A DNA stretch of 64,000 bases from contig JABFOP010000159.1 of assembly GCA_016618385.1 (NCBI GenBank), positions 502,555 to 566,554 on the forward strand. Direction: 5' to 3'. Under the pieces are notes generated by a model that ran no database searches, was not told the origin of the DNA, and saw only the letters and a list, made by a program, of their open reading frames with translations. The DNA comes from Nymphon striatum (Eukaryota). Positions 806-53,460 of the stretch are shown here, piece after piece (position 1 is the first letter of the stretch; every line of letters begins with the position of its first letter). The position numbers and the translations under genes are program-made.

Positions 806-1044
806 TGTCTAAAGATAATAAAGACCGTAACATGCATAATTAAAATGGTTAGCGCAAAGAAATATGGCAGCACCTTTCTCACAGATAATACGTGAAGTGG
901 CCAGTCAGCTTCTCTTTCAGCACGAATGAATTGCGTTATAATAAACATGGGTTTTATTGAACAGTCAATCCATAATTTTGTCGTTTGGCTTTTCTTACTC
1001 TTGGCCTCTAACAGTGCTTATAAAGCCGACATGCTTTGAATCTT

Positions 1045-1338: not shown

Positions 1339-2273
1339 TATTTATCTGCAAGACAGTCAAAAAAAATTACCACAAACAAAATTAAACAGGATTTTCTTAA
1401 AAACGAACTCAACTAATTCCTCAATTTTGGACGCCATTTTGAATGTTTGCGTTTCTGCAAAAATGCTCAAGGTTTAGAGACTGGCATCCATCAGATTTGG
1501 AATCAGCGCCGAAAAATTGTATAGAAACAAGAAAAAAAGTTTATAAGGTTGTCAAAATTTATCATATACTCCCACTCGGACTATACTTGTAAAAGTAAAA
1601 CAGTTTCATTTGACAACATATATGAACAGTTGTCTTAAAAAATCTGGATAACTTTAAAAATTAAAATAATTTAAACCAGATTTGAAATAAAATAATGACA
1701 TTTGTCAAGGTATATTAGATTACATAACTGTGATGAAATCTTGCATGAGGGACCACTGACCTATCATGGCTATGTGAGGGACATCAATTTATTTTAGAAC
1801 ATACGCCCGAAGAAAAGTCAAAGTTTTGTGAAAATGTATAATTTGACATGATTGAATATATATAAATATATCATTGTTTTGAAGGGCTGTATTTATCGCT
1901 ATCAACAGGTAAATTGACCTAAATTTATGTTCTTATTCATAAGGTCGAATTTAGTTTAAAAATTGATTTAGCATGATTAGTTAGTTTACTTCAAAAAATG
2001 GTTTTGTTGTTGTTCGACAGAGCATAATTTTGGAAGATTTGTGCAGTTTTGTGTGAACTTAAAATTAAGCTCGGAGTGCTGTTTCACAGCTGATCATTCA
2101 TCCACTTTATTTTCAAGAGACGTGAACAATCAATTTATTTAACATTTACTGGAGACTACAGGTTGTTATGTAAAATAGTTTGAATACATATTGAATTATG
2201 ACTTTTATAAAGTTTTGTTTTGTTTGTTGTAGCGACTGTTACATATCAGCTCAAATTGAGCTTAATACCGCAC

Positions 2274-3959: not shown

Positions 3960-4360
3960 TATTAAAAAAAAAAAAAAACATACGATCTAGAAATGAAGAA
4001 CAAGCGCCATTATGATTATCGTAAGGTACAACAACAACATGCCTGTCGTCTGTTCGTTGTAAGTTTCATAACAATCGGTCAGAACGACTCATTTTTTGAC
4101 TAACATAACCGTAAATAGCATCAATTTTGTAGTAGCAGCCTTTCTTTTATTTCTCTGATTAGTCCGAGCATACTGAACCGTACGTCACTTCCCGAGTTCC
4201 AAAATGTTTGCTGAAGTTGGCATATTGAAGCCCCATACAGACTTGAAAATTATTAGAGCAAAACTCCAAAGATCCACACAATGCACGTAGTGTGGAGTAC
4301 CTGCTCGTAATATCAATAACAAAAAAGGATTTATAATACAGAAATGTTAAACTTCTGAAA

Positions 4361-5390
4361 AGTATGTTTATTTATGCACTCAATACTTAATTATACTAAA
4401 TCTTTTTGCATGAATTACTGCATCAATGCGGCTTGGCATGGAGGCGATCAGCCTGTGGCACTGCTGAGGTGTTATGGAAGCCCAGGTTCATTTGATAGCG
4501 GCCTTAAGCTCGTTTTTATTGTCGGGTCTGGTGCCTTTCATCTTCCTCTTGACAATACCCAGGACAGGCGAGTTGGCTGGCCAATCAAACACAGTAATAC
4601 CATAGTCAGCAAACCAGTTACTAGTAGTTTTAGCACTGTGGGCAGATGCCAAGTTCTGCTGGAAAAGGAAATATGTATCTCCTATAAAGTTTGTCAGCAG
4701 ATGGAAGCATGAAGTGCTCTAAAATCTACTGGTAGATGGCTGTGTTGAGTTTGGACTTGATAAAATACAGTGGACCAACATCAGTAGCACACTGGAGCAA
4801 CTTGGATTTTTTGTGCTTCTCCACTATTCCTCTGAACTCTGGGACCCTGATTTCCAAATGAAATGCAACATTTACTTTCATCTAAAAAGAGGACTTTAGG
4901 ACCACTGGATAACAGTCCAGTTCTTTTTTTTCCTTAGCCCAGGTAAGACGTTTCTGACATTGTCTCTGCTTCAGGAGTGGCATGACACTAAGAATGCGAC
5001 TCGTGTGTATTATTTCCTGGACACGTCTGTGCATGGTGGCTCTTGAATGATGCACTCAGTCCACTCTTTGTGAAACTCACCTAAGTTCTTGAATCAGCTT
5101 TTCTTGACAATATTCTCAAAGCTGCAGTCATCCCTGTTGTTTGTGGACATTTTCCTACCACACTTTTCCCTTCCAGTCAACCTCCCATAAATGTGCTTTG
5201 ATACAGGACTCTCTACGACAGCCAGCCATTTCAGCAATGATCTTCTGCAGTTTACACTCCTTGTGGAGGGTGTCTTTGAGTGTCTTCTGGACAACTGTCA
5301 AGTCAGCAGTCTTCCCGATGATTGTGGTTGTGCGTACAGAACCACATTGAGGGATTCATAGTATTAATACTGCATAAATAGTGATTTACT
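4361..5390 (-). mobile_element. Tc1/mariner-like DNA transposon remnant (internally deleted, frameshifted transposase)
   Basis: Minus-strand reading frames encode Tc1-type transposase segments. The plus-strand ORFs 4374-4712 and 5141-5350 are their antisense. The terminal inverted repeats are AGTATGTTTATTTATGCACTCAATACT at 4361 and AGTATTAATACTGCATAAATAGTGATT at about 5390. Confidence 0.5.
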
Positions 5391-22905: not shown

Positions 22906-25089
22906 TAGTCCGGGAGCCAACTGCCATTTTTCCCCTTAACCTTGCATTGTTGTATTAAGTTTTTTTTACTGTTGATTTTGGTAGCCTAGGGTCTCTATTT
23001 TCAGAAACTGCTTGATGACATGTTGTCACCTTTGAGCAATTTGAGAAATTCAAGATGGCGTCCAAGATGATATAAATGACCATAACTCCCTACCTGTTCA
23101 TCATAGGAAGGTGATTTTTGTCTCTATACCTAGGTTTTAGGGGTCAAGCTATCCATTAGAACTAAGTATTATGTTAATATCGTATTACATAATGGTAATT
23201 TCCAAGATGAGTCTGTGAAAGACTATATAGCGAACTTCAACTATGCCATAGGAAAAAGGTTACGGGTCGAGTACGTGTATCTGATATTTGACAGATATTA
23301 TGATTACAGCACGAAAAGTGTTACCAGAGGATCTAGGGCAACTGGTGTCAGTAGGGCTCATCATTTGCAAGTCAACAGTAAACTTCCAGCGCAGAAGATT
23401 CTACTAACCTCTTCCAAAAACAAGAAGCAACTGATGCAACTGATAGTTGATGATTTTGTCCAGGATAAGAAGTTTCACGAGGACAACACACAACATTACA
23501 AGTTAGTGGTAACAGGAGCAGATCCGGTGCCAATCGAAATCAGTGAAGGTGGAGTTGTCATCTCACGGGCAGATCTGTCAACTTCACACGAAGAAGCAGA
23601 TAACGTCATTGTCCAACAGGTGTTGAGTTGTGCCGCGGAAAATGCAGAAAGCAAAATCACTGTTGTTGCCGATGACACTGACGTCTTTGTACTGTTGTTG
23701 TATTATCATCACATGGCAAATCTCAAGAATGTTGTATTGATGGAGTCCCCATCAAAGGAAGGGCGGTGCTTGATATAGGCAAAACTGTGCAGAAGCATTG
23801 TCAGATAGTCGAAGGAATACTCCCGGCACATACACTTTCTGACTGTGACACCGTCGCCTCCTATTTTAAAATTGGAAAGGCTACTGTACTCAAAACACTT
23901 CGATCGGGGCACTCACTTAACTTGTTGGGTGCACCAGGGCATTCTATGGAATCTGTTATTCAACAGGCTACCTCCTTCATTTCCGCGTGCTATGGACAAA
24001 CAGACTGTAGTACAATGTCAGAGACAAGGTTAAAGGTATGGCTGTCACAAACAGGCAAAGGGTCATCAACACTGAAGTTGTGTACCTTGCCACCAACAAC
24101 TGAGGTATTCAAAGAGAAGAGCTCACTATCAGGCTTTGGTATGGCGGTCACTGAAAGCGCAGAATCCACCCGAGTTGGACTCAACGGAATATGGTTGGGT
24201 AAAGGATGACCAAAACAAGTCCCTTCAACCAGTCACCCTACCTGATGAAGTCGAACTAGCCCCACAGATGGTACTACGTCTAATAAAATGTGGATGCCAC
24301 AGTACTACTCCATGCAGTTCACGTGCTTGTAGTTGCAACTCTGCAAACATGAAATACACAATATTTTGCGCCTGCTATAATCAGGGTTGCTGTAACCTGA
24401 CATCATAGCTGATTGCATGTCTTTGTGATGCACATGAGCAACACAACGTACAACAGTGTAGATTATTTGGTAAAGTGGTAGCCATCCTTAATTATGACTT
24501 GTATAATATGCTTTTGGTAGTCTGTGAGAATTCAGATTTACAATTAAAGAACATTTGTTATAATATAACACCTGTGGTCGTTTACCTTTTCATATTTTCC
24601 ACCAAGATTGAATAGTATAGAAGATATACCAGTGCTTGTAAACTGGCAGCCATCTTGGATTTGTAGATGACATCATCAGTATATGAACTTTGATCTGATA
24701 CAGATAGATGTGTCTCCAAAATACTCAGGGATAGACACCTTCACGACTAATTTGGAGTAAATAGTATATATGCCAGTTTTAGTGTTACGGCGGCCATCTT
24801 GGAAATTACTATTATATAATACGATATAAACATAGTACTTAGTTCTAATGGATAGCTTGACCCCTAAAACCTAGGTATAGAGACAAAAATCACCTTCCTA
24901 TGATGAACAGGTAGGGAGTTATGGTCATTTATATCATCTTGGACGCCATCTTGAATTTCTCAAATTGCTCAAAGGTGACAACATGTCATCAAGCAGTTTC
25001 TGAAAATAGAGACTCTTGGCTACCAAAATTAACAGTAAAAAAAAAATTAATACAACAATGCAGGGTCAACCATCTCTGCCCCCGGACTA
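22906..25089 (+). mobile_element. TIR DNA element (about 2.2 kb, about 230-bp terminal inverted repeats) carrying a PIN-like and CXC ORF
   Basis: 22906-23170 is the reverse complement of 24836-25089 at about 95% identity. The flanks are GGCTA|TAGTCCGGG...CCCGGACTA|CTAAG, suggesting a target-site duplication of CTA or TA. Internal ORFs at 23215-24408 are in three frames. Confidence 0.65.
23215..24408 (+). CDS. TE-borne ORF: PIN/FEN-like nuclease-type acidic motifs plus C-terminal Cys-rich CXC-like module (frameshifted or spliced)
   Basis: The ORF spans three frame segments (23215-23778, 23766-24209, 24136-24408). Motifs include SHEEADNVIVQQV, VVADDTDVFVLLLYY, SDCDTVASYFKIGKATVLK and CGCHSTTPCSSRACSCNSANMKYTIFCACYNQGCC. 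The PIN-like reading comes from the motifs only, and I could not assign a family. Confidence 0.45.
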
Positions 25090-28937: not shown

Positions 28938-30635
28938 GTAAATTTGAAATTTATGATATATTATATACATGCCTGCTCAAATTCAAAATTTGCATGAACG
29001 GGAAAATGGTTATGCAAATATTTTTTGCAAAACTGATTATAGTTTGCATAACCATTTTTTTTTATGTGATGAAAACAACTATATTTCAATTTTTTTTTTT
29101 CTAGATCTCCAGATCTGGAGATATAGACGGGAGGCCTTTGCTCAGCAGTGGGCCTAGTATGGCCTCCAAATAGCCTCAATATCCTGATAATTTACTAATT
29201 GATCAATTTTATTTTTTTTTTTATTTTTAACACTCGTCCTAAGACGAGTTATATTTATTCAGAATAAAAAACATTTTACACAGAAACGTAAATATACTAT
29301 AACAGAAGGAAACAGAAAATACATATTTCATAAACTAAAATGTTAATGGATGGAGTTTATTGCATTTATTTCAAGTTATCAATGTAGATTAGCATTCTTT
29401 TTCTTTGTTGCTTCAGGAATATTAAAAAAAGTTTTAATTTTGTTGACTGTTCATTATATGGGCTCAGAATATGGTGGATATGTCCAGTTAAAACGGACAC
29501 CGATGGATGCAGTTGAGTATAAAAAGGTATATGTAGCTTTGGGCATTCGAATATTTCGTGGAAGGAATATTTAGTTGATCATTTCATTTACATATTCATA
29601 ATTTTTGTTAGAAGATAAAACAAAATAAAAACTACCAAATCTCAATTGACTTACAGAAGAAACAACACTTATTTTATTTTTTAAATTCAATTATTTTTTT
29701 CTTTTTCATTTTTTCTTTTTTATTAGTTGGTTTTTATATAAATTGGTTATGCTAAAATATTTTACTTAAAATATTTACGAAGCGCTCGTTCGTGCAATTT
29801 GACAAGCAGTGCTCAAATATAATGTGTTCTCAAAAGTGTGTGACTTTTTTCCTAGCAAGTTCATTATTATTAAGCCATTATTCAACTTGCTAAGATATTT
29901 ATTGTAATAAGGAATGTGTGTGTCAATGTGTTCCTTATCAATACTGATACCATAATTTTCAGAATTTGAAGCTTTTCATAGAATTTTTTTTCAAAATCCA
30001 CTTGACCTCAACAAGTGAGGTAAAACAACCTTAACCCTGTGGAGTCGCAAGTGACATATATGTCCCCTAGCCCTTTAGGTCGCAAGGGACATATATGGGC
30101 CAGAATCGGAGATCAACATTTTCATCAATTTTTTTCACTAAATCTGAACCGATCGGAATGAAACTTCACATAAATGAAGTTCAATAGTTTTTCGCACCCT
30201 GTGCAAAAAAACAGCCAAATCAAACTATGTTTTCACATTCTCGGACAGATCAAAAAACCATCTTACCATTCCGACAATTTCGCTTTTTATCCCAAAAACG
30301 CTGAACCGACTGTCCTCTAATAGAGTGCATGTGTTTTGAAATGAATAAAATAGCTTTGATTCCCTGAACCATAACCATAAATGAACGAATAAACACGACT
30401 TGCGTTTCTTTTGCTGTCGAGTATATATGTGAGACTGGTTGAGTCTTTAACATCGTGACTCTGGTGGCTGAAGGACCCAGGTTTGAATCTAGTTTGAGCC
30501 TTCCATTTATTCAGTCTTCACACATTGCACATTATGTTGTTTCCTTTCTTAATCAAATGCAGGAATAAATCAATAATTATTAGAATAAAATAGTTTCCTT
30601 CCTTATCATTAACCTTTCTATTTAAATGCCATCAG

Positions 30636-30735
30636 ATGTGCTGCAGATAAACATTGCATGCGTTTATTGTCTCAACACAGTGGAGGAGCATTTCAAAATT
30701 TTAATGTTGATTCCAAGTCAAAATGGAAGAAAAAG
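30636..30735 (+). CDS. PARP4: PARP4-like exon 18
   Basis: The phase-2 acceptor is CATCAG at 30630-30635. The exon encodes GCAADKHCMRLLSQHSGGAFQNFNVDSKSKWKKK. This aligns to the human GSTANRHVLRILSQCGAGVFEYFNAKSKHSWRKQ. The donor is GTACAT at 30736. Confidence 0.7.
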
Positions 30736-31818: not shown

Positions 31819-31995
31819 GTAATGCATCAACTGAAGTGTTCTGAAAATTATAGTCTTAATGATGTTCACGTAACTTGGCCAGGTTTAACTGACAGCTCAA
31901 AAATTAAGCAAGCACCGAGTAAATTACCTGCTTTATTCAGTGGTTCTCAGCATGTGATATATGCATTGGCTTCAGAAGATGTTGAATTTTATACG
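31819..31995 (+). CDS. PARP4: PARP4-like exon 19
   Basis: The exon encodes VMHQLKCSENYSLNDVHVTWPGLTDSSKIKQAPSKLPALFSGSQHVIYALASEDVEFYT. This aligns to the human IEDQMTRLCSPSCHSVSVKWQQLNPDVPEALQAPAQVPSLFLNDRLLVYGFIPHCTQ. The acceptor is TTACAG at 31813-31818 and the donor GTATGT at 31996. Confidence 0.65.
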
Positions 31996-32992
31996 GTATG
32001 TTTAATTAAATCATTAATTTCTTTTAAGAGCAATTTTTATGTATACAATACATTTAACAGTGTCAGTGTCAGTGGCCAAGGTGGTCATAAATGCACTTCA
32101 ATGTGAAACCGAAAAACTTGCGTTGATGCGCAAATATCTCGAAATCTATCCCGAAATAACCAGAAATAATGATGCGAAAACATGATGCAGCATGAAATTT
32201 TCAAAATGTGTATATCTTTTTTTGTTTAAGTGTTACGACAGTATTTGTATTGCTACTCTGGAACTGTGGGTAATAGATTGTCTTTCTTTAAGGCAACCTT
32301 TTAGGCACTAATTTTGGATTTAACCTTTTCTATTGCTGGATAATTACATTCAGGCAATGTACTATCAACCGAGTGAGGATGTTTCTGTTGAAAAATACCC
32401 CAGGCTTCAGCTGGTTTAATCAGTCTGTTGCTTTGCACGAAGATTCTCACTACAGTTGATAAATGCGGCATCACAAACACAATACCCCTAGAAGAGGACA
32501 AAGTTATGTTTTGTCTGCTTTTCTACTTTGCCACTGAATTCCTTATAATTTGGTTCATAACATCTACTCCTCTTTTGTCTTTGAATTGGAGCACATTTAC
32601 AGGAGCATTTAGAACATTCTGAACATCTTCAAAACTTAGCACGATGGCATGAGCAGCGCATGACACACAGAGTGGATGTGTAGAAAACAAAGACTTTTTT
32701 AAGGGTTTTAAACCAACCAACGAATGCTGTTTTATCTTTTGAGCAAATTAGAATAATTTGGGCAAATTTAGGTGTTACATATTTTCACATTTTTCGGCCC
32801 CCTTGGCCGCTAATAATGATGTTAAATTGAAATTACAATTTCTCCATGTCTATCAAGTTTGCATATTCCAGAAGGCGGTGTTTTTACTTTTCGAAAAATC
32901 AATCCTTAAATTGCAAAACAGATCTAAAATATCTAGGTTTTCTATTAGTTGATTTTTCTTTTATTAATTGTATTTGTGTCTGCTGATTTTAG

Positions 32993-33144: not shown

Positions 33145-33331
33145 TTAATTCATGCTTTAGCTGCACGTGCCATATTAAGAGATTGGGAAGATGGTTTACT
33201 CTATGATGATGTGTCAGAAGAAATTCAAACTAAGAAGTTCATGCAAAAAGCCATTATAGATATGAGTATAGAACATTCCGTCTTATGTTCCCTGACCAGT
33301 TTCATTGCCATTGAGAGACGAGACAAGGCTT
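33145..33331 (+). CDS. PARP4: PARP4-like exon 21 (3' boundary uncertain)
   Basis: The exon encodes LIHALAARAILRDWEDGLLYDDVSEEIQTKKFMQKAIIDMSIEHSVLCSLTSFIAIERRDK. This aligns to the human MIHKLAARALIRDYEDGILHENETSHEMKKQTLKSLIIKLSKENSLITQFTSFVAVEKRDEN. The only GT after RRDK is at 33332, which gives phase 1. Confidence 0.65.
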
Positions 33332-35215: not shown

Positions 35216-37258
35216 TCTATTTATGTTGTCGTAAATCCATGATGCTCCTGTCTTTATGCCTTCATACATTCTTTTCCTTGAGTGTGAAGTCCAATCTCGA
35301 TATGCAGCTAATTTACAAAGTTGTGTATTGTGCTATTTCACACATTAATTGATAATGCTTGATTCCTAAGCTTTATGCGTGAAGAAAATAGTTTTTAAGT
35401 TGTGCTAGATATTTCATATCTATTGCCACTTCCAGTTATGAGTGGGACAAATGTGTCCGGAGAAAATTCTAACATGATACAGGGGTTCCATTAGTTTTGA
35501 AAGTAGGAGGTAGTGGTATAGTGACGAGCGCAAGCGAGGCTAGAAAAAATGTTCTCCGTTGATACCAAAAAGAACTTTTTGAGTACTTAAATTATTAAAG
35601 TAATAACTGCTTTTATTGGATGCAGATTTGATTGCATGAGATTTTGAAGTGATTTATTTAACAATATCCTTCGTTACTTAATCAGTTAGTGGAGGGCGAC
35701 GGAGCAGGAAGCCATCAATTTGCTGGCTCATATAAGTTCCCATGTAAGATGGGGTAAAGGGGAGTGCAATAGCAAATATCAGATGTCAGAATTACTAAAA
35801 TTTAGTAGTGGTAGGGAGTTCAGTCACCAAGACCAATGTTTAAGAAATTGTGTTTAAAAGGAAAACAGCAGTTTAAGCATTCTTTTAAAAAAATAATGAA
35901 GTAAATCGCTCCACTGGATACAATTTTATAGCTAAATGAAGATTTCAATAATTGCTCTTTTTGAAGAAAATTCCCTCAAAAGACACAAGGGAAATGTATA
36001 GCCTAATTCAAAGACAATGGCACCAATTAGTGCCAGAAGGATCTGGCACTAACCATGTTGTATTTTCCCGCACAGGACAGATACGAAAACCAGGCAACTT
36101 CTACGACATTCTGCTGGGAATTTTGAAGAATTCTATATATAACACGATAGGTTTTGTGGTTCAAATTACAGGAGGATTAACACACGAAATAGGGTATCCC
36201 CGTAAAATGTTGCCTAATCATGGTGCCGTGTAGCGATCACGCGCGAAACATTTGCTCAGTTCAGATACAAAATTAAGCAACCCAAACACATCGTAGCTTA
36301 ACTAAACATATTTTATTTAAGATATACACATCTTCTTTATATCTAATCATAATATAAATGCTAAAAACTTTTTTTTTATGGGATAACTTGGCGCCTAAAA
36401 AATAGGTGTATATGAGAGATTCACCACCAATGTGATGCCATTAGGCTGGCTGACTGAACTCCCTAGTAGTGGTTATCACCGAATGTAAATAAACTGGCAA
36501 AACGCAAATGATGTCGCCAAATGGCATAAATCTCATAATATGTCATATCAGATGGTTAAATCGAAATTAGAATGAATTATCGTTTGTCAAGTTTAAAATG
36601 ATATGTGAAATCGATGGGGAAAAAGAATTTCGGACTTTTTTTTACAGTAAATATGGAATGTGAAATAGGTCCGATATCGGCTATCGAAAAACCCCTTTAC
36701 CCCTCCCCTTCATATAAAGATTTATAAGTATTTGTCCACATGATCTTTGAAGTCATTCATAGTTTTTGCCTCGATGGCCTTTCGTAATACTAGTATTACT
36801 CATTACGAAAAAGTATTTTTTTCTTTTACTTTTTTTTTAATGTGGAAGTAGACGGCTCTATTATTAAATATGGCGGCTATTTTAGCCGCTAGCCGCTTTT
36901 AAACGACATGTCTGTGATATATTCATTAGAACCAGTGAATAAGTGATGCATAATTTTATTGACTGAAATTTAAGAGTAAATCATTCTTCATAAACAACCA
37001 CATTATTTTAAATGTAGAAAAAAAGGAAAGTGTCAATATTTTTTGCTGTTTTATTTTTTCTGAATCTGTTAGTAAGTTAAATATTAAAAAAGTGACAGAA
37101 TTTGAATTTTTTATAAGAGATATTTTATTTGACTTCTCAAAATATTGACAGTGTTTGAATTGATGTTTAGATTATTATAAATGTAAAAATAAAAGATAAG
37201 TGGTTTTTGTGCTAATTCTATTAGATTTATGCAATTTTAAATTTACAGACTGATCAAG

Positions 37259-37416
37259 CTAAAAGTAGTAAACTCTTAATCGAAAGTCTGAAAGAAAACA
37301 TTGATATTTTACCATCAGTAGAATATGATGATGAGGAAATTTTAAGTCCCACACCAACAAGTATGGACCTTGGTGCTGGTGAGAGAAAAGATGAATCGGA
37401 CAGTGATGTTGATAAG
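37259..37416 (+). CDS. PARP4: PARP4-like exon 22 (5' boundary uncertain: acceptor 37248 or 37258)
   Basis: The exon encodes (TDQA)KSSKLLIESLKENIDILPSVEYDDEEILSPTPTSMDLGAGERKDESDSDVDK. This is an acidic segment colinear with the human ESPFPDIPKVSELIAKEDVDFLPYMS. The donor is GTATTT at 37417, phase 0. Confidence 0.5.
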
Positions 37417-38402
37417 GTATTTTCAGAGTTTTTTAATGTTAACCTATTAACTCTGTATTTTCTCCATTGGGTACATTTCAAGTTGAATAGCACTCTTCAT
37501 AAATGTTTCACATTATAATAATAACTTTTATTGCACAAAAATTGCACATGAGATTATCGCAAGTATTAAACAGAGACAAAAATAAGTATATGCAACAAAA
37601 GTTGATAATAAAGAAAGGTAGTAACAGAAAATAACGTAAAATACACGATTACAGAGTTAATAGAGAAAGTAACTGGGGAGGAGATAGATTATAGAGAGTC
37701 GGACAAGAAAAATTGTAATAATGAGAGGCAGGGGATAAACAATAAGAACAGATCCACGTATCAGTTGGGCAATTGTGGTAAGTTTTAGTGGGGAAGAGGT
37801 CAAAGGAGTCGTAGCATATGTCTGGATAAATCGTTCGTGGGCAATAAATGTACTGGGTGAGAGTACCAAAACCAAGAAGAAATATTGGGGATCAGGTCAG
37901 AAGGCCAGATAGGGAAGAAGGGACTTTGACCATGAGAAGACATTTGGATTGAAGTTGCTTGAGAAGGTGGGATAGAGGAATAGTGTTGGTCATAACATGA
38001 GTGATGCTATTCTGGCTGAATAGGAGATGCCAAAGTAATACTTGAGGAATTTGTTGAATTAGGAGTTTAGTTATTTCTCCGAAGAAGAGCAGATATGGGG
38101 AAGCCATAAGTGAAGTCCATAAGTCAGGATGGGAAGAATATAAGTATCGAAAAGACAGATAACTGTCGAAAGTGGAAGGTTTCTTATAGGAATTTTAATG
38201 CGTAGATAGCCGATTCTGGGGGATGCCTTGGCCACTATGTGATCAATATAGGGAGTAGAAGAAAGTCTAATGGTGATGAACATGCCAAGTTAGTTGAATA
38301 AGTTTGTGTTAGAGATAGGGGAGTCTTTGTAATAAAAAGTTAGAGCAGTGACCCATTGTGAAAAATGACACACTTTGTTTTGTCTGTATTGGCAGTGAAC
38401 AT

Positions 38403-39513
38403 TGTAGTGACCTCACTGTCACGTGGCTCCTCCCCTTCATGCAAATGTACTACCTCAGTTTCAATAAATTGCTCTCTTGCTTCCTGACCTTCTAACAGTC
38501 AACATGCTTTCTTTTATTTCTCCGACTTAAACTCTATAGCATTTCTTCCTAAATCTTATAACCATAAATCCTTCAATGGTGACCCAGACAAAACTCAGCA
38601 GCTACAACAGAACTCAGAAACAACAACTAATCAGCACTCGGAAACGACAATAGCAAGAACACTCAGCATCGTGGTAAGTCTGCCTTCCAACGACTAACAT
38701 AATTCCGAACTTACTACATACTTCATCAACCAATCTTCCATGATTTGTAGCGAGCCATAGCCTCATTTTCACATTCTCGTTATTCCTTTGCCACGCTACA
38801 CATCTCTGAAGAATCTGTGGCCGTTGCCGACTCCTGTAAGAAGTTTGCCTTAATATATTAACTCTACATTTCGGACTTACAAGTTTAGTCTCCCGTGATA
38901 TGAAGTGAGCCATCATAATATGCCACACTCCATATCTCGGAAGAATCGACGGCCACAGCCGACGACCCGTTATTTAAATAAAAAAATGAACTTTGACGTT
39001 ACATGATGCATCTACATCGATCCATTTCTAACCTCTATTTATGTTCTGACAAGAGTTACCTCCTGAAACGCCTGCACAGACCGGCCATTCACACGTTTCT
39101 CCCGTCGTAAACATCATAAGTCTGCTCCTGAAGTCATATTGCATTCTATCGTCTGCATCATTAACCATAACCACGTCCAGCAAGCCTTAATTATCAATTT
39201 TTTTTTATACATTCAAATATTAAATGGTTTCTCAAATTCTGTTATAAAACTTCATACTGTATTTGCATATATTTTTCTTCTCAAATTTGTAAATTCCATT
39301 TCATTGCCTGTACAGCTCCGCTTCTTGGCGGGGGAGTAATGTAGTGACCTCACCATCATGTGGCTCCTCCCCTTCATTCAAATGTACTACCTCAGTTTCA
39401 ATAAATCGCTCTTTTGCTTCCTGACCTTCTAACAGTCGACATGCTTTCTTTTATTCCTCCGACTTAAACCACGATAGCATTTTTTCTTAAATCTTATAAC
39501 CATAAATGCTTCA
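38403..39513 (+). mobile_element. small non-autonomous LTR retroelement (TRIM/LARD-like): two 172-bp LTRs, PBS-like and PPT, target-site duplication
   Basis: LTRs at 38403-38575 and 39340-39513 are about 92% identical. They begin with TG and end with CA. A TGGTGACCCAGAC PBS-like sequence lies right after the 5' LTR. A GGCGGGGGAG polypurine tract lies right before the 3' LTR. The flanking duplication is AACAT/ACAT at 38398-38402 and 39513-39517. The 760-bp interior has no gag or pol. Confidence 0.65.
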
Positions 39514-39849
39514 ACATATTGATATTACAGTAATTCGCAAGTGAATTAATGCCTAATTGAAGGTCATTAGAGGAAGAGGCGAGAATAACTAGGTCATCAG
39601 CATATTACAGATAGGAGATAGGGAACTGATTATGGAGTAGAATACCAGGGTGAGAAAGAATAGAAGGTGGGTGTCAGTGCAGCAAAACGAAAGATGGGGA
39701 CAAAAACAAAGAAAACCAACTTTCGTTTAACTCAATTTCCCAGTATACAAACAAAGTTCTCACTTTTTGAAATGTCAGGGGAACTTTTCCCACTTTGACT
39801 ACAACCTGAAATGAACACTGCTTAAGTATAAATATTACTTTTTATCTAG

Positions 39850-40044
39850 TCCTCAAGCTCTTCAGAAGTAAGATCAAGATCTAGATCTAGATCTAGATCA
39901 AGTCAAAGACACACATCATCTTCAAGATCTAGATCACGATCGAGAACTAGTTGCAAATTTAAAAAAATGTCAACGCCTGTAGGTGTTCGGAAGAAGAAAG
40001 TAATAAAAAAGTCAAAAACTTCAAGATTTAGTCAAAATTATCAG
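39850..40044 (+). CDS. PARP4: PARP4-like exon 23 (RS-dipeptide / basic stretch)
   Basis: The acceptor is TCTAG at 39845-39849 and the donor GTATGT at 40045, both phase 0. The exon encodes SSSSSEVRSRSRSRSRSSQRHTSSSRSRSRSRTSCKFKKMSTPVGVRKKKVIKKSKTSRFSQNYQ. It is built on a (GATCTA)n microsatellite. It lies at the position of the human basic KRKHRKIPFSKRK segment. Confidence 0.5.
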
Positions 40045-40116
40045 GTATGTTGTTCATGCTCTGTTGTTCATTCAGCATTTAAATGTTTCCACCATAATTG
40101 TTCATATTTTTATCAG

Positions 40117-40168
40117 GATGACCAATCAATGCAGGTCTCAATTCAAGAACAAGGTGATTATAAAAGTA
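40117..40168 (+). CDS. PARP4: PARP4-like exon 24 (micro-exon)
   Basis: The acceptor is TATCAG at 40111-40116. The exon encodes DDQSMQVSIQEQGDYKS. A phase-1 donor GTAATT at 40169 is needed to match the following phase-1 exons. Confidence 0.4.
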
Positions 40169-41654
40169 GTAATTTTTTTTCTTTTTTTATCGTTTAAATT
40201 TTGATAAACTTAACATTAATTTAAATATAGTTTATTGATTGCCATTATGAGACATTTTCTTATAATTCAGTTTGAAAAGTGGGAGTTTTTGATCCTTGAT
40301 TTTGACCAAAACACTTGACCCTTATAAATAACAATTAACACGAATAGTCATACGAGAGGCTCAAGCCGCTTAGATTAGCTTTCAAGACGTTTGGAGGATT
40401 ACATTTTGTCGTGCGACACCTCTCAATCCTCTTAAATCTAATCCTAGTTCGAAGTAGGTTTAGATTTTCAATCCGGATACATTTTGTCGTGTGACAGGTC
40501 TTAAGCCAATAAACTCAAGCCGTCCTGTGCAGAATCGAATAGATGTTTGCTAAACGCTGACATCCGGGCATCACAAACAGTGAGTAAACAAACATGTATA
40601 AACCTTGAAACCAACTTCCAACGTTTTAAAACGAAAATCATGCTCATGCGCGAACTCGCTTTGCACCTCCCATTATCACCACTGGATATCAAAATTCAAT
40701 CCGAAATCTGAAGCCTCTTGAGTCTCAAGCGGCTTGAGATTTTGTCGTGTGACTCCAGCTATAGTCATAATAGTCAAATAGTTGTTCGTTTAACTTCAGT
40801 TTAACCTAAAAAAAATAAAATAAAATATTTACAAAATTTGCAAGATTAACAAAATAGTTACTTATAATTTGTGCAAAATTATAAATAAGAAAGAATCATG
40901 AGGGTGCCTGAACAATTGCCCTAAACAAATATGTTAACACCATTAAAAATGAAAAGAAAATAACTAATTCACTGGTTTGTTTGCAATTAATTAGATTAGA
41001 AAGTGTTGTGTTCAAAGATTATAATGTATGTCTTTGCTTTCACTTTGAAGGTTGTCTCTCCCTCACTTCCTTCCCCACCTGCTCATTTGCATATTATCTA
41101 CTGTTTTCTATAAATGTACTTTTGATATAAAATAAAGGGAGTCTCTACTCAACATCTGAAGAGGACTCATCTGATTACTGTCTCCTAGCTAGACCCACAA
41201 ACATAACAGAAAGTCTTCTTGTTTACTCTCCGTATATCATGGCCATAATTTCAACCATTATTTTTGCTTACTCATGGTTGCTGCTGTTGTTTGCAAAAAA
41301 ATTTACTTTACCAACATAATTTTTATCATTTTACTCAAACTAATAAATAACCAGTGCCATGAATTTATGTAATAATATTTATATAAACAATTAGTAATAT
41401 TTATAAAGGTTTACAACATTTATTTTAAGAAAGAACTAGATTTAAACTAAATATAGCTGTGTAAAATGTTGATGGTTCATTTCATTTCATTGTTATGGGG
41501 CTCGGCATATTTAGTGGTATGCTTAGTTTCATATCTACCTGTTGCCCTGCTTGCCTTTATCCAACATACTCTAAAATAATCTAAAACTTCAATACAACTC
41601 CAATTTTGTTCTTTGTTGTTAATCCATTTACACTTGGTATTTGTTGAATGATAG

Positions 41655-41753
41655 ATGTCCAATCAAATACGGGCAACCAAAAAGAGAAAGCTGAATGGAT
41701 GAACGATGTGCACGATGAAAGTAGTGAAGATGACATGGGGTTCAGCATATTTG
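41655..41753 (+). CDS. PARP4: PARP4-like exon 25 (copy 1 of triplicated exon; SSEDDMGFSIFG)
   Basis: The phase-1 acceptor is TGATAG at 41649-41654. The exon encodes VQSNTGNQKEKAEWMNDVHDESSEDDMGFSIF. The donor is GTAGCA at 41754. The exon and its flanking intron are tandemly repeated at 41912 and 42155. Confidence 0.55.
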
Positions 41754-41911
41754 GTAGCATCTTTATTTTTATATCTACCCATTATACTATTTCTAGTCCT
41801 GGTCTTTATCTAACATGCTTTAATAATATCATAAATTCCAATACTTACAACTAATTCTAGCTGTTTTCTTTTTTGTTACTATATTTATTCTTGATGTTTG
41901 TTCTATAATAG

Positions 41912-42016
41912 GTGACCCAATAGACGTGTGTGTTCAAAAAGAGAAAGCTGAATTGAAAGAAAAAAGAGTGCATGATGAAAGTAGTGAAGATGACATGGGG
42001 TTCGGCATATTTAGTG
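41912..42016 (+). CDS. PARP4: PARP4-like exon 26 (copy 2 of triplicated exon)
   Basis: The exon encodes GDPIDVCVQKEKAELKEKRVHDESSEDDMGFGIFS. The acceptor ATAATAG ends at 41911 and the donor GTATGT is at 42017, both phase 1. Confidence 0.5.
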
Positions 42017-42154
42017 GTATGTTTAGTTTCATATCTACCTGTTGCCCTGCTTGCCTTTATCTAACATACTCTAAAATAATCTAAAACTTCAATACAACTC
42101 CAATTTTTTTCTTTGTTGTTAATCCATTTACACTTGGTATTTGTTGTATGATAG

Positions 42155-42280
42155 ATGACCTATCAAATACAAATACTAGTATCCATAAAAAGAAAGCTGA
42201 ATTGAAAAAAAAAGCGATAGCAGCACAAACTATAGACGAAAAAAGTAGTGAAGAAGATATGGGGCTCGGCATATATCTTG
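42155..42280 (+). CDS. PARP4: PARP4-like exon 27 (copy 3 of triplicated exon)
   Basis: The exon encodes DDLSNTNTSIHKKKAELKKKAIAAQTIDEKSSEEDMGLGIYL. The acceptor TGATAG ends at 42154 and the donor GTATGT is at 42281, both phase 1. The upstream 135 bp of intron is about 95% identical to the intron before exon 25. Confidence 0.55.
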
Positions 42281-42599
42281 GTATGTTTAGTTTCATATCT
42301 ACATATTACCTTGCTTTTATCCTGGCGTTCATCTAACATGTTTTAGTAGCCATCTTAAACTCCAATACGTATTCCCTATAATTTATATAAACTTTTTCCA
42401 AGCCTCTTTCAATTTATCAAAAATTTCTGTTCATTGTTTCGATGAAATCAACATAATTCATGATAATTTCAAATCTTCTACAAAATTTCAATTGCATCAT
42501 ATTTCTGTATTTCTAATTTTTATCACTTTTAAAATTTTGGAGAATACAAAAAAAAGATACTCTATTAGAAAATTTGAAATATTAATTTTTTTAATACAG

Positions 42600-42671
42600 A
42601 TGAGGATGGTCACATTTCTAAATCTACTCCGGACATTGATGAATTTGTAGAAAAAGGCTCATCAAAGGCAT
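42600..42671 (+). CDS. PARP4: PARP4-like exon 28 (tentative)
   Basis: The phase-1 acceptor is ATACAG at 42594-42599. The exon encodes DEDGHISKSTPDIDEFVEKGSSK. The 3' end is unclear. A GT at 42672 gives phase 1, but the next exon I recognise needs phase 0, so intervening exons may exist. Confidence 0.35.
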
Positions 42672-43099: not shown

Positions 43100-43560
43100 T
43101 AAAACAAACTAGGTTTAACTCTTTCTTTTTCTTCTCGCCATATTCTCGCCAAGAGTGAATGGAAAGACTTGAAACTGTATGTGGCAAGGAATCGACATTT
43201 CCAAGGGACCCATCCACTTGCAGTATGGCAGAGGCAGGAGGATGCTGGGAGAGACGATTATGGAAACATTCTTAAGATTGTCCATCTTACAAGCATATAC
43301 CCCCTTAGTAATGCTGCCTGTGAGAGAGGCTTTTCTGTAATGAAAAGAGTGAAAAATGACTGGAGATGTTCACTAAACAATGAAGTTCTTGACCAGTTGT
43401 TGAGAATAAGCTTGACAGGCCCACAACTCGATGCATTCGACCCCACACCAGCAGTCAGAAGATGGTGGGTTAGTGGACAAAGAACCAAAAGACCAACAAC
43501 ATTGCCATATGGACCAAGGCATTAAGTATTATATGATATTAAGATAATCATGAGAAGGTT
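43100..43560 (+). mobile_element. hAT transposase C-terminal (hATC dimerisation) fragment, ZMYM1/Charlie-like
   Basis: ORF 43169-43525 encodes ..LSNAACERGFSVMKRVKNDWRCSLNNEVLDQLLRISLTGPQLDAFDPTPAVRRWW.. This matches the canonical hATC motif. No N-terminal transposase or TIRs were found, so it is a fragment. Confidence 0.6.
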
Positions 43561-51200: not shown

Positions 51201-51429
51201 CAAATATTAGATACATAGACTTAGACCTTTTGATCCTCCTCTTACTGACTGCATTTTTAAACTTTAACCGCAAGATCAAATAACAAGAAAAGCAAGGAAA
51301 ATAAAAGAAATCCATCTGGTCATTACGCTCCATCTTTCGACAGAAAACTAAACAAAACAATTAAAAATAATAAAATATAATATAATAACAATGGTTGTTA
51401 TATTATTAAAATAAATTTTGTTTTTGTAG

Positions 51430-52138
51430 TGTTCCAAGATTTCACAGAAACTATACAGCATTTCTTGATGAAAATGAGCAAACTGCAGATGAAGCTGGCC
51501 CTTCTGAATTTGCGCCACCAGTAGCAAATTTAGGCTTTGGAAGAGCATTTTCTGGGCAACAAAATACGTCTTCCCCACTTGCACCAGGATGTATCTCTGG
51601 AAGTAGACATCTTCAGCAAAGGATAGGATTTCGCTTTGGAGGTGAAGGTGACCCTTCTGAAGTTGCGCCACCGGCAACAAATTTGAGTTATGGAAATGCA
51701 TCTTTACCATCTGCATCAGGATTTAGCTTTGGAAGTGTTCCGAGTAATTTTGGTGCACCTGCTACAGGATTCAGCTTTGGAAGCGGACCTCCTCAACAAC
51801 AAGTTAATCTTGCTCAACCTGCATCAGGATTTAGTTTTGGAAGTGGACCTCCTCAACAACAAGTTAGTCTTGCTCAACCTGCATCAGGATTCAGCTTTGG
51901 AAGTGGACCTCCTCAGCAACAATTTAATCTTGCCCAATCTGCATCGGGATTTAGTTGTGGAGGAGAACCTCGCAACAAAGATTTATCCAAACAATCTGCT
52001 GCTGCTGGTCATCTGTTTGGTTCAAATCAAGCTTTCTCTGCAACTTCTAGTTTATTTCGAGGTCCCATGATTGGTTCTAATTCAGTTAGTGCTCCAAGAT
52101 TTCAAAATGAAAGTAGAGCATCTACTTCTTGCCGAAAA
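51430..52138 (+). CDS. PARP4: PARP4-like large repeat exon, part A (FG-like 20-aa repeats; this frame ends at TGA 52139-52141)
   Basis: The phase-2 acceptor is TTGTAG at 51424-51429. The exon encodes SVPRFHRNYTAFLDENEQTADEAGPSEFAPP...PASGFSFGSGPPQQQVNLAQPASGFSFGSGPPQQQVSLAQPASGFSFGSGPPQQQFNLAQ... It has 60-bp internal repeats. It corresponds to the low-complexity human FGSAAPP..QFSQGPVPG region. This frame reaches a stop inside the second copy of a 662-bp tandem duplication. Confidence 0.5.
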
Positions 52139-52141
52139 TGA

Positions 52142-52638
52142 GCAAACTGCAGATGAAGGTGGCCCTTCTGAAGTTGCGCCACCGGCAACAAATTTGGATT
52201 ATGGAAGTGCATTTCCTGGGCAACAAAATAAGTCTTCCCCACCTGCATCAGGATTTAGCTTTGGAAGTGTTCCGAGTAATTTTGGTGCACCTGCTACAGG
52301 ATTCAGCTTTGGAAGCGGACCTCCTCAACAACAACTTAATCTTGCTCAACCTGCATCAGGATTTAGTTTTTTTTTTCAAGATCCAATGATTGGTTCTAAT
52401 TCAGTTACTTTTGAGGATTTTCTTCCACCAGCACCACAATCAACAGAAAATCATCAGTTGCCACCAGGTTCACAAAGATCTTTATTCTTTTCAAAACATC
52501 ATCAGATAGAAGGAAGTGCTTCAATACAGCACAGGAAGGCTTTCTTTTCTGTTACCAGCTTTCTCTCAGATATTTTGAAATATATTAGTCAAAGATATGT
52601 GCAGGATGAATCAGTGAAGAAACTCTTTGTGACACACG
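52142..52638 (+). CDS. PARP4: PARP4-like large repeat exon, part B (second duplication copy, +1 frame relative to part A)
   Basis: The frame-0 reading encodes ENEQTADEGGPSEVAPPATNLDYGSAFPGQQNKSSPPASGFSFGSVPSNFGAPATGFSFGSGPPQQQLNLAQPASGFSFF..MIGSNSVTFEDFLPPAPQSTENHQLPPG...ISQRYVQDESVKKLFVTHG. The donor GTAAAT is at 52639. Joining part B to part A requires a frameshift, or an intron that I did not find. Confidence 0.45.
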
Positions 52639-52716
52639 GTAAATTTTTTCATTATTCATTATTTTTTCATTTACTGAATCTTTCACATATAGAAATATTT
52701 TTTCTTGTTTTATCAG

Positions 52717-52826
52717 GAATAAAGATCCCTGTCATGCAGACTAACATGAAATCTGCTGTTAACAATGATACTATTCATTGGAAAAGTGATAAAATAAAAG
52801 AATTCCTGGAAAATTTGTTGGAGAAT
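52717..52826 (+). CDS. PARP4: PARP4-like exon (C-terminal region)
   Basis: The phase-1 acceptor is TTATCAG at 52710-52716. The exon encodes GIKIPVMQTNMKSAVNNDTIHWKSDKIKEFLENLLEN. The donor is GTAAGT at 52827. Confidence 0.55.
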
Positions 52827-53460
52827 GTAAGTAATTTGATTTTATAGAAGTCATCTTTTCTGATTTTGGCTTTTTAAGTATACATAAGTATAAGTATAGT
52901 TTTTATATATTTTTTTTTTTTATGTATACATTTTGTATCAATTTTATATATATTCATTTTTTATGCATTTCTTGTTATTTTTATGGAACTAATTTAGAAT
53001 ATTTAATTACAATATACTCGTATTAAAAGACTTGAAAGCACAAAAAATCTCTTTCTAATGTTCTGATTCTATTTGGTTTCTTTCTAATTCTACTTTTCCT
53101 TTCATATTTTAATCTGATGATGGTAATAATTCGAGTTGTCGAAATATTATCCATAAACTTTATTTTAAAACATATTTTGTGTGTGATTTATATGATTTGG
53201 TCAGCTATGATCAGTTTTATAAAAGCATTAGATTTTCACAGGAAAAAAAGCAATTTTTCTAAAAGAATTTTGGGTGGGAGGGGGTAACTAATCCCCCCCC
53301 CAAGCCCTATGAAAGAAAAGAAAACCCCAGCTGATTTAATATTCTAGCTAACAATATGTGTGTTTCTCTTGAGTTTTTGTGTTATTTTGTTCCTTCTGCA
53401 TTAACATGGCTATATCTCAACAATTTAAATTTTGTTATTAAGGGTTATACTTTCTGTCAA

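Follow-up and report, generated by a model that had tools for sequence, protein, structure and literature searches.

The window, that is, the whole 64-kb stretch of Nymphon striatum DNA that was analysed, carries a PARP4 gene. A protein search returned 580 matches to PARP4 homologues with E ≤ 1e-10, the top match being the GenBank entry 'Poly [ADP-ribose] polymerase 4 [Nymphon striatum]'. This protein maps with ~100% identity to window positions 5992-29571 and carries the Pfam domains PF00644, PF02877, PF08487, PF13757 and PF13768; the locus behind it gave no record on exact look-up. Conserved PARP4 exons reach position 37416, which agrees with the original prediction that the segment at 39850-40044 lies inside PARP4, and its numbering there as exon 23 is consistent with our own count of 22-24. 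The deposited N. striatum model is truncated and contains a transposon ORF, so that a corrected gene model is one gain of the present analysis. The deposited model ends within an intron at 29571 and is thus uninformative on 39850-40044.

The segment, hereafter candidate exon G, is located between bona fide PARP4 exons of the same strand, with exons E and F upstream and three exons resembling the ribosomal P-stalk tail (P1 to P3) downstream (Table 1). Strong PARP4 conservation ends with exon E, whose orthologue in the sea spider Pycnogonum litorale has the same length. A tblastn search with 52 long PARP4s as queries detected no MINT/MVP-interaction (vault-binding) domain downstream of 33400, and the window therefore does not define where PARP4 ends on its 3' side. 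The introns of the gene harbor several ORFs that resemble those of transposable elements (TEs).

Table 1. Features surrounding candidate exon G of N. striatum PARP4, in window coordinates; a slash marks a splice junction.
Feature	Position	Strand	Description
Exon E	33145..33327	+	183 nt; phase 0/0; LIHALAARAILRDWEDG...SFIAIERRDK; GC donor; tblastn with 12 orthologues
Exon F	37249..37416	+	phase 0/0; TDQAKSSKLLIESLKENIDILPSVEYDDEE...ERKDESDSDVDK; conserved PARP4 linker motif EDVDILPY
Exon G 3' splice site	39835..39849	+	ttactttttatctag/; 7.03 bits (PWM); TAG also closes the upstream frame
Predicted pre-mRNA hairpin	39846..39950	+	pairing between RS blocks 1 and 2; outer stem over the acceptor CUAG
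Candidate exon G	39850..40044	+	195 nt, 65 codons; phase 0 in, phase 0 out; RS-rich half, then Lys-rich half
RS block 1	39871..39900	+	AGATCA AGATCT AGATCT AGATCT AGATCA, read RSRSRSRSRS
Spacer	39901..39924	+	SQRHTSSS; counted by Tandem Repeats Finder within the degenerate period-6 array
RS block 2	39925..39948	+	AGATCT AGATCA CGATCG AGAACT, read RSRSRSRT
Lys-rich basic patch	39952..40017	+	CKFKKMSTPVGVRKKKVIKKSK; match to K-K/R-x-K/R; contains the purine-rich element GAAGAAGAA
Intron between exon G and mini-exon	40045..40116	+	72 nt, in frame, stop-free; acceptor tttttatcag/ 9.88 bits
Mini-exon	40117..40153	+	DDQSMQVSIQEQ; phase 0 in, phase 1 out; codon usage 0.40 bits per codon
Exon P1	41655..41753	+	phase 1/1; ...NQKEKAEWMNDVHDESSEDDMGFSIF; ribosomal P-stalk-tail-like motif
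Exon P2	41912..42016	+	phase 1/1; ...VQKEKAELKEKRVHDESSEDDMGFGIFS; tandem duplicate of P1
Exon P3	42155..42280	+	phase 1/1; ...HKKKAELKKKAIAAQTIDEKSSEEDMGLGIYL; tandem duplicate

Translation of candidate exon G in frame 0 gives SSSSSEVRSRSRSRSRSSQRHTSSSRSRSRSRTSCKFKKMSTPVGVRKKKVIKKSKTSRFSQNYQ, exactly the peptide originally predicted. It reads SSSSSEV(RS)5SQRHTSSS(RS)3RTS followed by a Lys-rich tail of 31 residues with 11 Lys or Arg and no Asp or Glu, and its net charge is +20. The frame starts right behind ...ttttatcTAG/, where the TAG is both an in-frame stop and the acceptor AG, and closes at CAG/gtatgt. Splice sites were scored with a position weight matrix (PWM) trained on 14 orthologue-confirmed introns. 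The exon G donor CAG/GTATGT scores 11.35 bits, ranks first among the 3433 GT sites of the window and exceeds every donor of the training set, whereas the acceptor stands at the 97th percentile of 3572 AG sites and is the fourth best within 37417-41654. The acceptor of the mini-exon, the best in this 4.2-kb interval, lies 72 nt downstream of the exon G donor. Introns of similar size are known in these genes, with confirmed lengths of 91-98 nt in N. striatum PARP4 and of 72 and 74 nt in Pycnogonum PARP4.

The phases are equally restrictive. The mini-exon is needed because the upstream exons are in phase 0 and the downstream exons in phase 1, and the chain running from F (0) through G (0,0) and the mini-exon (0,1) to P1-P3 (1,1) is the only one of its kind among the candidate exons of the interval. 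With the 40044 donor in use, frame 0 alone is open and 39850 is the sole phase-compatible acceptor; an acceptor at 39866/39867 was rejected as its phase clashes with exon F. Among intronic windows of 65 codons, 2.7% are free of stops. In its splice sites, frame and phases, exon G thus has the properties looked for in an expressed exon. A single longer exon at 39850-40153, in which the 72 nt would be retained and add VCCSCSVVHSAFKCFHHNCSYFYQ and the 40044 donor would go unused, is also open from phase 0 in to phase 1 out, the 72 nt being in frame and stop-free. We nevertheless hold this reading to be very unlikely, as no donor and no acceptor of the region scores better than the two that flank these 72 nt, which have a length that fits the short introns of both PARP4 genes.

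The same signals bear on a more serious alternative, which we regard as possible but doubtful, namely that the segment is an intronic pseudo-exon. The AGATCT array, with its flanks, would then be part of the intron that separates exon F from the mini-exon and enter mRNA never or negligibly, the open frame and the splice-like signals being coincidental. A direct splice from F to the mini-exon does preserve the frame. Against coincidence, the strongest donor of the 64 kb ends the 65-codon open frame exactly, 72 nt before the best acceptor of the interval, and the chance of finding such a donor in a slot of ~50-100 nt is estimated at ~0.001-0.002. The frame moreover starts exactly at a 97th-percentile acceptor, and the phases match on both sides.

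Both RS blocks are imperfect arrays of the hexamer AGATCT, and the RS runs are thus encoded directly by the repeat, as originally proposed. The description of this repeat as a (GATCTA)n microsatellite names the same repeat in another register, but the tract is brief and degenerate: 9 units can be recognised in it, and the 3 perfect ones follow one another. The N. striatum assembly was made from 40 pooled individuals (PMC12220506), so the length of the repeat may already vary among its raw reads. Tandem Repeats Finder reports a period of 6 with 12.7 copies and 71% matches at 39870-39945, and a period of 12 with 90% at 39871-39902. The sequence AGATCTAGATCT occurs five times in the window at no more than one mismatch, each time within exon G (0.18 expected; none of 100 shuffles reached five), so the in-frame tandem array exceeds chance. 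AGA encodes 7 of the 8 Arg across the two blocks. Of the 6 changes away from AGATCT, 5 leave the encoded Arg-Ser unaltered, against 28% expected (binomial P = 0.0076), a bias that argues against the pseudo-exon but weakens to P ~0.07, by hand calculation, if AGATCA is counted as one event spread by slippage.

An RS tract written in AGATCT repeats fits an origin by slippage. Like coding microsatellites and young frame-preserving exons, exon G comprises an in-frame tandem hexamer with homogeneous codons, has a length that is a multiple of 3, and is lineage-specific in a linker that is described as disordered and fast-evolving in human PARP4 (PMC10450202). It differs from coding microsatellites in that its unit is palindromic, AGATCT being its own reverse complement (a BglII site), and in that its two blocks may pair in the pre-mRNA, an unusual feature that is predicted only. 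The predicted hairpin has a free energy of -29.1 kcal/mol (z = -2.66; 1 of 200 shuffles equally stable). It could hide the exon G acceptor, which would be in line with a pseudo-exon.

The palindrome also makes the repeat read SRSRSRS on the minus strand, and introns here contain TE-like ORFs, so we considered whether the open frame could belong to a transposable element, a nested gene or a minus-strand gene. This is extremely unlikely. A minus-strand gene was rejected as all minus-strand frames hit stops every few codons, and a TE or dispersed repeat was rejected as there is no second copy of the exon G segment elsewhere in the window. The segment matches no Pfam family at cut-off, and a known RNA family was rejected because the region has no Rfam match.

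Codon usage argues for the pseudo-exon. For exon G the score is -0.03 bits per codon, close to the 67th percentile of intronic ORFs that lack stops, and its composition is thus indistinguishable from theirs and short of that expected for coding sequence. The test performs on N. striatum PARP4: measured against the same intronic ORFs, 17 of 19 confirmed exons rank within the top 0-13.5%, a range that also includes the mini-exon (top 1.8%), P1, P2, P3 and the next exon. Exon F is in the top 0% with 0.36 bits per codon. Confirmed and neighboring exons score 0.12-0.40 bits per codon, and all the neighbors of exon G score as coding. The low-complexity Arg/Ser/Lys composition of exon G may account for its poor score and limits what the codon test can tell for this segment.

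We also performed searches for proteins and contigs that contain exon G. The Nymphon exons of this region had no protein match in a database of 5.8 billion clusters or among 1.8 billion representatives. A query with the full C-terminal chain, including the RS and P-stalk-like parts, gave 8000 candidates with none significant, presumably because it was swamped by low-complexity words; the same query cleaned of these parts gave 351 candidates, again with none significant. By the latter search, exons C to G lack any annotated or transcript-derived protein in Nymphon, a result in favor of the pseudo-exon. The junctions between F and G and between G and the mini-exon had no match in two scans of metagenome contigs, as expected. 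An exhaustive phmmer search returned distant PARP4s only, with at most 42% identity, the best being that of Pycnogonum litorale.

Pycnogonum litorale is the only other sea spider that was compared. Neither its transcript-supported PARP4 model nor its 23.8-kb locus contains an RS run, an AGATCT repeat or a match to exon G, and at the matching place the protein has a short RKRRRLIVK patch. The Nymphon chain aligns to the Pycnogonum protein with a score of 231 without exon G and 218 with it. Judged from this alignment, exon G is an insertion relative to P. litorale. Conservation in this related species, a further property looked for in an expressed exon, was thus not observed, and the missing counterpart and the better alignment without exon G are both in favor of the pseudo-exon. 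Nymphon and Pycnogonum belong to different families, so that the absence indicates lineage restriction and not lack of function. Among 199 other PARP4s, the linker contains RS runs of at least three in 2, which indicates that the family needs none.

The original prediction also had the RS stretch take the place of the basic KRKHRK segment in human PARP4, which we take to be annotated as a potential nuclear localization signal (NLS) in UniProt. This part of it finds no support. Exon G has its own Lys-rich patch, KFKK...RKKKVIKKSK, adjoining the RS runs, and the Pycnogonum orthologue has RKRRRLIVK alone. PARP4 linkers of other species contain basic patches together with assorted low-complexity inserts, and the patch is part of a module with the order basic, acidic Ser-rich and MGFGLF-like, which Nymphon also has in its three downstream exons (KKKAELKKK...EEDMGLGIYL). 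Like the basic patch of exon G, the mammalian KRKHRK-like patches and RKRRRLIVK are a Lys/Arg cluster that lies ~60-120 residues past the SFIAVE/EDVDILPY landmarks and before an acidic Ser-rich sequence. Unlike exon G, these patches are 6-12 residues long and have no RS tract. Since the P exons carry alternative counterparts, homology of KFKK...RKKKVIKKSK to the patches of other PARP4s cannot be established.

We compared the RS tract with the criteria of the SR protein family, taken as one or two N-terminal RRMs and a C-terminal RS domain of at least ~50 residues dominated by RS/SR. The Pfam domains of the Nymphon protein and of the C-terminal chain include no RRM. The RS stretch spans 34 aa, and in the best 50-aa window 36% of the residues are in RS/SR dipeptides; Manley and Krainer, in 2010, reportedly placed the dipeptide threshold at >40%. 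With the canonical SR splicing factors SRSF1-12, exon G shares runs of consecutive RS dipeptides, but its tract is below 50 aa and it has no RRM, so it is not a member. For comparison, the RS domain of SRSF1 has 51 residues with 37% Arg and 39% Ser (PMC11126954). The compositional criterion of Cascarina and Ross (2022), a 20-residue window with at least 20% Ser, at least 20% Arg and at least 70% Ser plus Arg (PMC9479744), is passed by exon G in 22 windows, conditional on inclusion of the exon; merged, they span 41 aa, and Ser plus Arg peaks at 85%. By composition, then, exon G passes as an RS domain, yet it is not one of the SR-protein type.

Closer likenesses are found outside the splicing factors. 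SR-related proteins contain a consecutive RS/SR cluster in a disordered region and pass the same compositional criterion; exon G differs in that its single tract is short, at 34-41 aa, and that the host protein is a vault-associated ADP-ribosyltransferase. A survey of RS low-complexity domains in proteins without RRMs is said to have been made by Boucher et al. in 2001. The lamin B receptor has an N-terminal RS repeat that is an SRPK substrate, phosphorylated and functional. This repeat and the SR-rich linker of the coronavirus nucleocapsid, likewise an SRPK substrate, resemble exon G in size class and context: each has a few to ~10 RS dipeptides, set in disordered basic sequence, and the protein around them mainly serves a different role. 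Both have been shown experimentally to be phosphorylated and functional, whereas phosphorylation and function of the exon G tract are putative. Below the Pfam threshold, exon G is weakly similar to CoV_nucleocap and Transformer, and about half of the coronavirus N proteins pass the Cascarina and Ross criterion (PMC9479744).

On these grounds we consider improbable the proposal that microsatellite expansion created an RS-type NLS or speckle-targeting domain in place of a KRKHRK-type NLS, by which part of the vault PARP would be directed to speckles, e.g. through transportin-SR import after SRPK phosphorylation. Exon G does contain 8 RS and 9 SR dipeptides, including an unbroken (RS)5, and passes the compositional criterion; a correlation of RS repeats with proteins of condensates and speckles is on record (PMC10023157), and PARP4 is listed as nuclear and cytosolic (PMC9189837). 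Against the proposal, nothing was replaced, as the Lys-rich patch lies in the same exon and P1-P3 hold more basic patches, the tract is short and comes without an RRM, and RS runs are rare in other PARP4 linkers. The Lys-rich part itself contains the classical, importin-alpha-type pattern K-K/R-x-K/R as RKKK, KKSK and KFKK, which is a pattern match only.

On balance, we read 39850-40044 as probably a young, frame-preserving and lineage-restricted exon of the fast-evolving disordered linker of N. striatum PARP4, likely included alternatively. It would encode part of the linker that joins the ITIH-like VIT-vWA region to the C-terminal region. Its 5' half would have grown by replication slippage of the palindromic hexamer, read AGA-TCT or Arg-Ser, with a non-repetitive Lys-rich patch as its 3' half. 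Inclusion would place the 65 residues, with their net charge of +20, between two acidic parts, the conserved EDVDILP...DSDVDK segment and the P-stalk-like DDMGFGIF repeats. Alternative inclusion is expected because the exon is symmetric, so that skipping preserves the frame, because it is young, and because its acceptor is merely moderate and predicted to lie inside the hairpin of the two RS blocks. From these sequence patterns we infer that the included exon would act as a basic patch. In its Lys-rich part it is similar to a classical NLS, as are the basic patches of other PARP4 linkers. The RS tract looks like a substrate for SRPK/CLK-type phosphorylation, by which the charge could be tuned; it would not act as a splicing-factor RS domain.

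A bolder version, which we hold to be quite improbable, would see here the very origin of an RS domain. A new cassette exon would have arisen by slippage of AGATCT, giving rise in turn to a phosphorylation-controlled nuclear or speckle-targeting module in a vault PARP, with inclusion of the exon gated by the hairpin of its own RS blocks at the 3' splice site. RS-binding SR proteins and the GAAGAAGAA enhancer within the exon could then feed back on splicing, and localisation of the vault enzyme would be linked to SR-protein and SRPK activity. Under the favored reading of a young linker exon, expression would make exon G a clean, datable case in which a hexanucleotide repeat has equipped a non-splicing protein with an RS-type low-complexity module, and a candidate localisation or charge switch for PARP4, whose disordered linker is poorly understood. 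Taken alone, exon G is a modest curiosity, as disordered linkers routinely gain and lose such tracts.

The linkers of PARP4s across animals also contain DDMGFGLF motifs that resemble the ribosomal P-stalk. A literature search found no paper linking PARP4 to MGFGLFD or to a P-stalk motif. The spliced Nymphon chain matches Pfam PF00428 with 29.3 bits, for a cut-off of 28.1, and P-stalk-like exons are common to the PARP4s of Nymphon, Pycnogonum, oyster, scallop and fish. The DDMGFGLF motifs are more interesting than exon G and provide a more testable lead on vault biology.

The candidate RS-rich and Lys-rich exon at window positions 39850-40044, here exon G, translates in frame 0 as SSSSSEVRSRSRSRSRSSQRHTSSSRSRSRSRTSCKFKKMSTPVGVRKKKVIKKSKTSRFSQNYQ, identical to the peptide of the original prediction. 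At the level of sequence, the RS observation and its repeat are confirmed: a hexamer array spells both RS blocks, as had been proposed. Tandem Repeats Finder detected period-6 and period-12 arrays at the RS runs, and AGATCTAGATCT, with at most one mismatch, occurs five times in the window, always within exon G, against 0.18 expected. The proposed term microsatellite needs qualifying in that the tandem hexamer array is short and imperfect. The AGATCT unit is its own reverse complement; a minus-strand reading of the repeat was ruled out by stop codons, which close the minus-strand frames. The in-frame stop TAG at the 5' edge (ttttatcTAG/) also supplies the AG of the acceptor, and the frame is open directly after it. 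The 3' edge reads CAG/gtatgt. No second copy of the segment was found elsewhere in the window, and no Rfam match. The intron upstream of exon G harbors a 175-bp direct repeat (38403-38576 and 39340-39514, +, 92% identity), probably a dispersed or duplicated element.

Features of the Nymphon striatum window and of the Pycnogonum litorale PARP4 locus (OZ207744.1, coordinates prefixed L001)
Feature	Position	Strand	Remarks
PARP4 exon	30636-30735	+	orthologue match
PARP4 exon	31819-31995	+	orthologue match
PARP4 exon (exon E)	33145-33327	+	orthologue match
Exon F	37249-37416	+	motif found after SFIAVE in all PARP4s, 'PSIxELVxKEDVDILPYxxW'
Exon G (candidate)	39850-40044	+	195 nt
RS block 1	39871-39900	+	AGATCA-AGATCT-AGATCT-AGATCT-AGATCA
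RS block 2	39925-39948	+	AGATCT-AGATCA-CGATCG-AGAACT
Mini-exon	40117-40153	+	37 nt, DDQSMQVSIQEQ
P1	41655-41753	+	phase-1 exon
P2	41912-42016	+	phase-1 exon
P3	42155-42280	+	phase-1 exon
Pycnogonum PARP4 exon	L001 10001-10129		
Pycnogonum PARP4 exon	L001 10202-10381		GC donor ATG/gcgagt at 10382
Pycnogonum PARP4 exon	L001 11320-11400		81 nt, between counterparts of Nymphon 31819-31995 and 33145-33327
Pycnogonum PARP4 exon	L001 11475-11657		183 nt, length of Nymphon exon E
Pycnogonum PARP4 exon	L001 12927-13035		EDVDILPY; phase 0 in, 1 out
Pycnogonum PARP4 exon	L001 13574-13773		...ERDTERKRRRLIVKDSDSSEDGSDVESMADGSCDDDDMGMGLFGT*

The predicted location inside PARP4 is borne out by the GenBank N. 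striatum PARP4 protein (1306 aa), which maps to 5992-29571 (+) at ~100% identity, and by orthologue-matched exons further downstream. A rough concatenation of the open frames of the window best matched 'Poly [ADP-ribose] polymerase 4 [Nymphon striatum]', and PARP4 orthologues by the hundred ranked after it. Exact reconstruction revealed that the deposited model counts 600 nt of transposon-like ORF (23134-23733) among its exons and stops within an intron at 29571 (section 29105-29571); at least ten PARP4 exons from 30636 on are absent from the GenBank annotation. Flawed and ending in an intron, the model is therefore neutral on exon G. A search of the window for an MVP-interaction domain gave no hit. 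Transposon-like ORFs were observed in and around the PARP4 introns at 431-1341 (-), 4359-5355, 23134-24405 (+) and 43103-43522 (+), the last of which (…NAACERGFSVMKRVKNDWR…) resembles, by eye, a hAT-family dimerisation domain. The best Nymphon candidate for the 81-nt Pycnogonum exon is 32404-32502 (+), in phase 0/0 with weak splice scores. A GC-AG-like intron follows exon E (AAG/gcttgt at 33328), whose Pycnogonum orthologue has a GT donor, and a further GC donor is possible at 42668, after 42600-42667.

Splice sites were scored with weight matrices trained on 14 orthologue-confirmed introns. At 11.35 bits, the exon G donor outranks every other GT in the window (3433 in total) and exceeds every training donor; the acceptor of exon G, with 7.03 bits, falls in the 97th percentile. 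The mini-exon begins 72 nt past exon G, at an acceptor of 9.88 bits that is the strongest in the 4.2-kb interval; short introns of 91-98 nt are known in Nymphon PARP4, and of 72 and 74 nt in the Pycnogonum orthologue. An unbroken phase chain runs from exon E (0) through F (0,0), G (0,0) and the mini-exon (0,1) to the tandem exons P1-P3 (1,1), and enumeration of all candidate exons of the interval gave no alternative chain. Of intronic windows 65 codons long, only 2.7% lack stops. Read in the RS frame, five of the six nucleotide changes relative to AGATCT are synonymous, where 28% would be expected to be so (P = 0.0076, or ~0.07 by hand calculation with AGATCA as a single event). In a codon-usage log-likelihood test against stop-free intronic ORFs, with confirmed exons scored leave-one-out, 17 of 19 confirmed exons fell in the top 0-13.5%, so that the test has power in PARP4; the mini-exon, P1, P2, P3 and the next exon fell in the top 0-2.5%. 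Exon G gained no support (-0.03 bits per codon, ~67th percentile), which may reflect its R/S/K low complexity. Neither the word-indexed searches nor an exhaustive phmmer search found a sequence corresponding to the Nymphon exons in this part of the gene, and scans of metagenome contigs gave no exon G splice junctions. That the segment is a pseudo-exon deserves some weight, but we regard it as rather unlikely. Exon G is plausible as an exon, and we lean slightly towards a real one at 39850-40044, as a candidate only.

The exhaustive phmmer search gave 'PARP4 (predicted) [Pycnogonum litorale]' (CAM1328057.1) as its best match, a model whose annotation draws on Iso-Seq and RNA-seq data (PMC12220506). 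The 23.8-kb Pycnogonum locus contains no RS run of at least three in any frame, no AGATCT repeat and no significant match to exon G, which is therefore either a Nymphon-lineage insertion or a Pycnogonum loss. Because the families are distant, this absence indicates lineage restriction, not non-function. In global alignment of the two species, leaving exon G out raised the score from 218 to 231, and the Pycnogonum basic patch aligns at most a few residues from the F-G junction of Nymphon. Immediately 3' of the Pycnogonum PARP4 fragment lies a long tandem minisatellite (L001 14014-16335), open in several frames (e.g. ...EPNRILTSEPNRILLKEPNWILSTEPNMILSKEPQQDPVNRTKQDPDKRT...) and including an assembly gap.

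The human PARP4 linker, which joins the ITIH-like region to the MVP-interacting domain, has been described as intrinsically disordered and rapidly evolving (PMC10450202; PMC12280208). Past EDVDILPY, PARP4 linkers are highly variable low-complexity sequences with poly-K patches, acidic runs, proline-rich and FG-like stretches. A basic patch occurs within 400 residues in 48 of 199 orthologues, and an RS run of at least three in two, Sycon ciliatum and one public read-archive (Logan) protein. Several species carry the basic patch as the first part of a three-part module, followed by an acidic Ser-rich part and MGFGLF; Nymphon has three copies of this module, one each in P1-P3. The proposal that the RS run replaces human KRKHRK is unsupported, since a Lys-rich patch is present within exon G itself and the downstream exons P1-P3 offer other candidate counterparts.

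Exon G contains 8 RS and 9 SR dipeptides, including an uninterrupted (RS)5, with a 34-residue RS-rich stretch (82% R+S) and a net charge of +20. Cascarina & Ross define RS domains by composition, requiring 20% S, 20% R and 70% S+R or more within 20 residues (PMC9479744); 22 windows of exon G qualify and merge into 41 aa. With no RRM and fewer than 50 residues, the tract lies outside the SR-protein definition (PMC11126954); RS/SR dipeptides account for 36% of residues in its richest 50-aa window. The coronavirus N SR region and Transformer showed only sub-threshold Pfam similarity; the tract resembles, and may work like, short RS stretches in SRPK substrates unconnected with splicing. The speckle-targeting role originally suggested is very improbable.

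As a type, exon G is ordinary: a low-complexity insert that derives from a coding repeat and sits in a linker that evolves fast. We infer a young, symmetric exon that AGATCT slippage made or enlarged in a disordered linker, and whose inclusion is probably alternative. The added segment would be strongly basic; its Lys-rich part would most plausibly serve as an NLS-like basic patch, its RS part as a phosphorylatable charge modulator. Because AGATCT is palindromic, the RS blocks are predicted to base-pair: a pre-mRNA hairpin at 39846-39950 (+; -29.1 kcal/mol, z = -2.66, 1/200 shuffles) pairs block 1 with block 2, its outer stem covering the acceptor CUAG. Such a hairpin could lower or regulate inclusion.

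A by-product of the analysis, the P-stalk-like motif of PARP4 linkers, is more noteworthy than the RS tract itself. P1-P3 are tandem-duplicated exons within a DNA duplication spanning 41495-42371, and each ends in DESSEDDMGFSIF, DESSEDDMGFGIF or EKSSEEDMGLGIYL, the motif that the ribosomal stalk proteins P1/P2 carry in their C-terminal tails. The Nymphon spliced chain scored 29.3 bits against Pfam PF00428 (Ribosomal_60s, profile positions 66-88; cut-off 28.1). We found no paper linking this motif to PARP4. The D/E-rich MGFGLF(D/G) motif is present in 17 of 273 retrieved proteins, the named ones being from sea spider, bivalves and fishes. It lies, sometimes in two copies, in PARP4 linkers of Magallana gigas, Argopecten irradians, Sparus aurata, Amphiprion ocellaris and several Logan proteins, and in Pycnogonum litorale lies at the very C-terminus of the PARP4 model. 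Further downstream, long open frames at 51410-52138 and 52071-52844 (+) carry repeated, internally duplicated FG-like units ('ASGFSFGSGPPQQQxNLAQP'); they are probably further PARP4 linker exons, because FG-like low complexity also occurs in other PARP4 linkers (e.g. a Logan protein, Polyodon).
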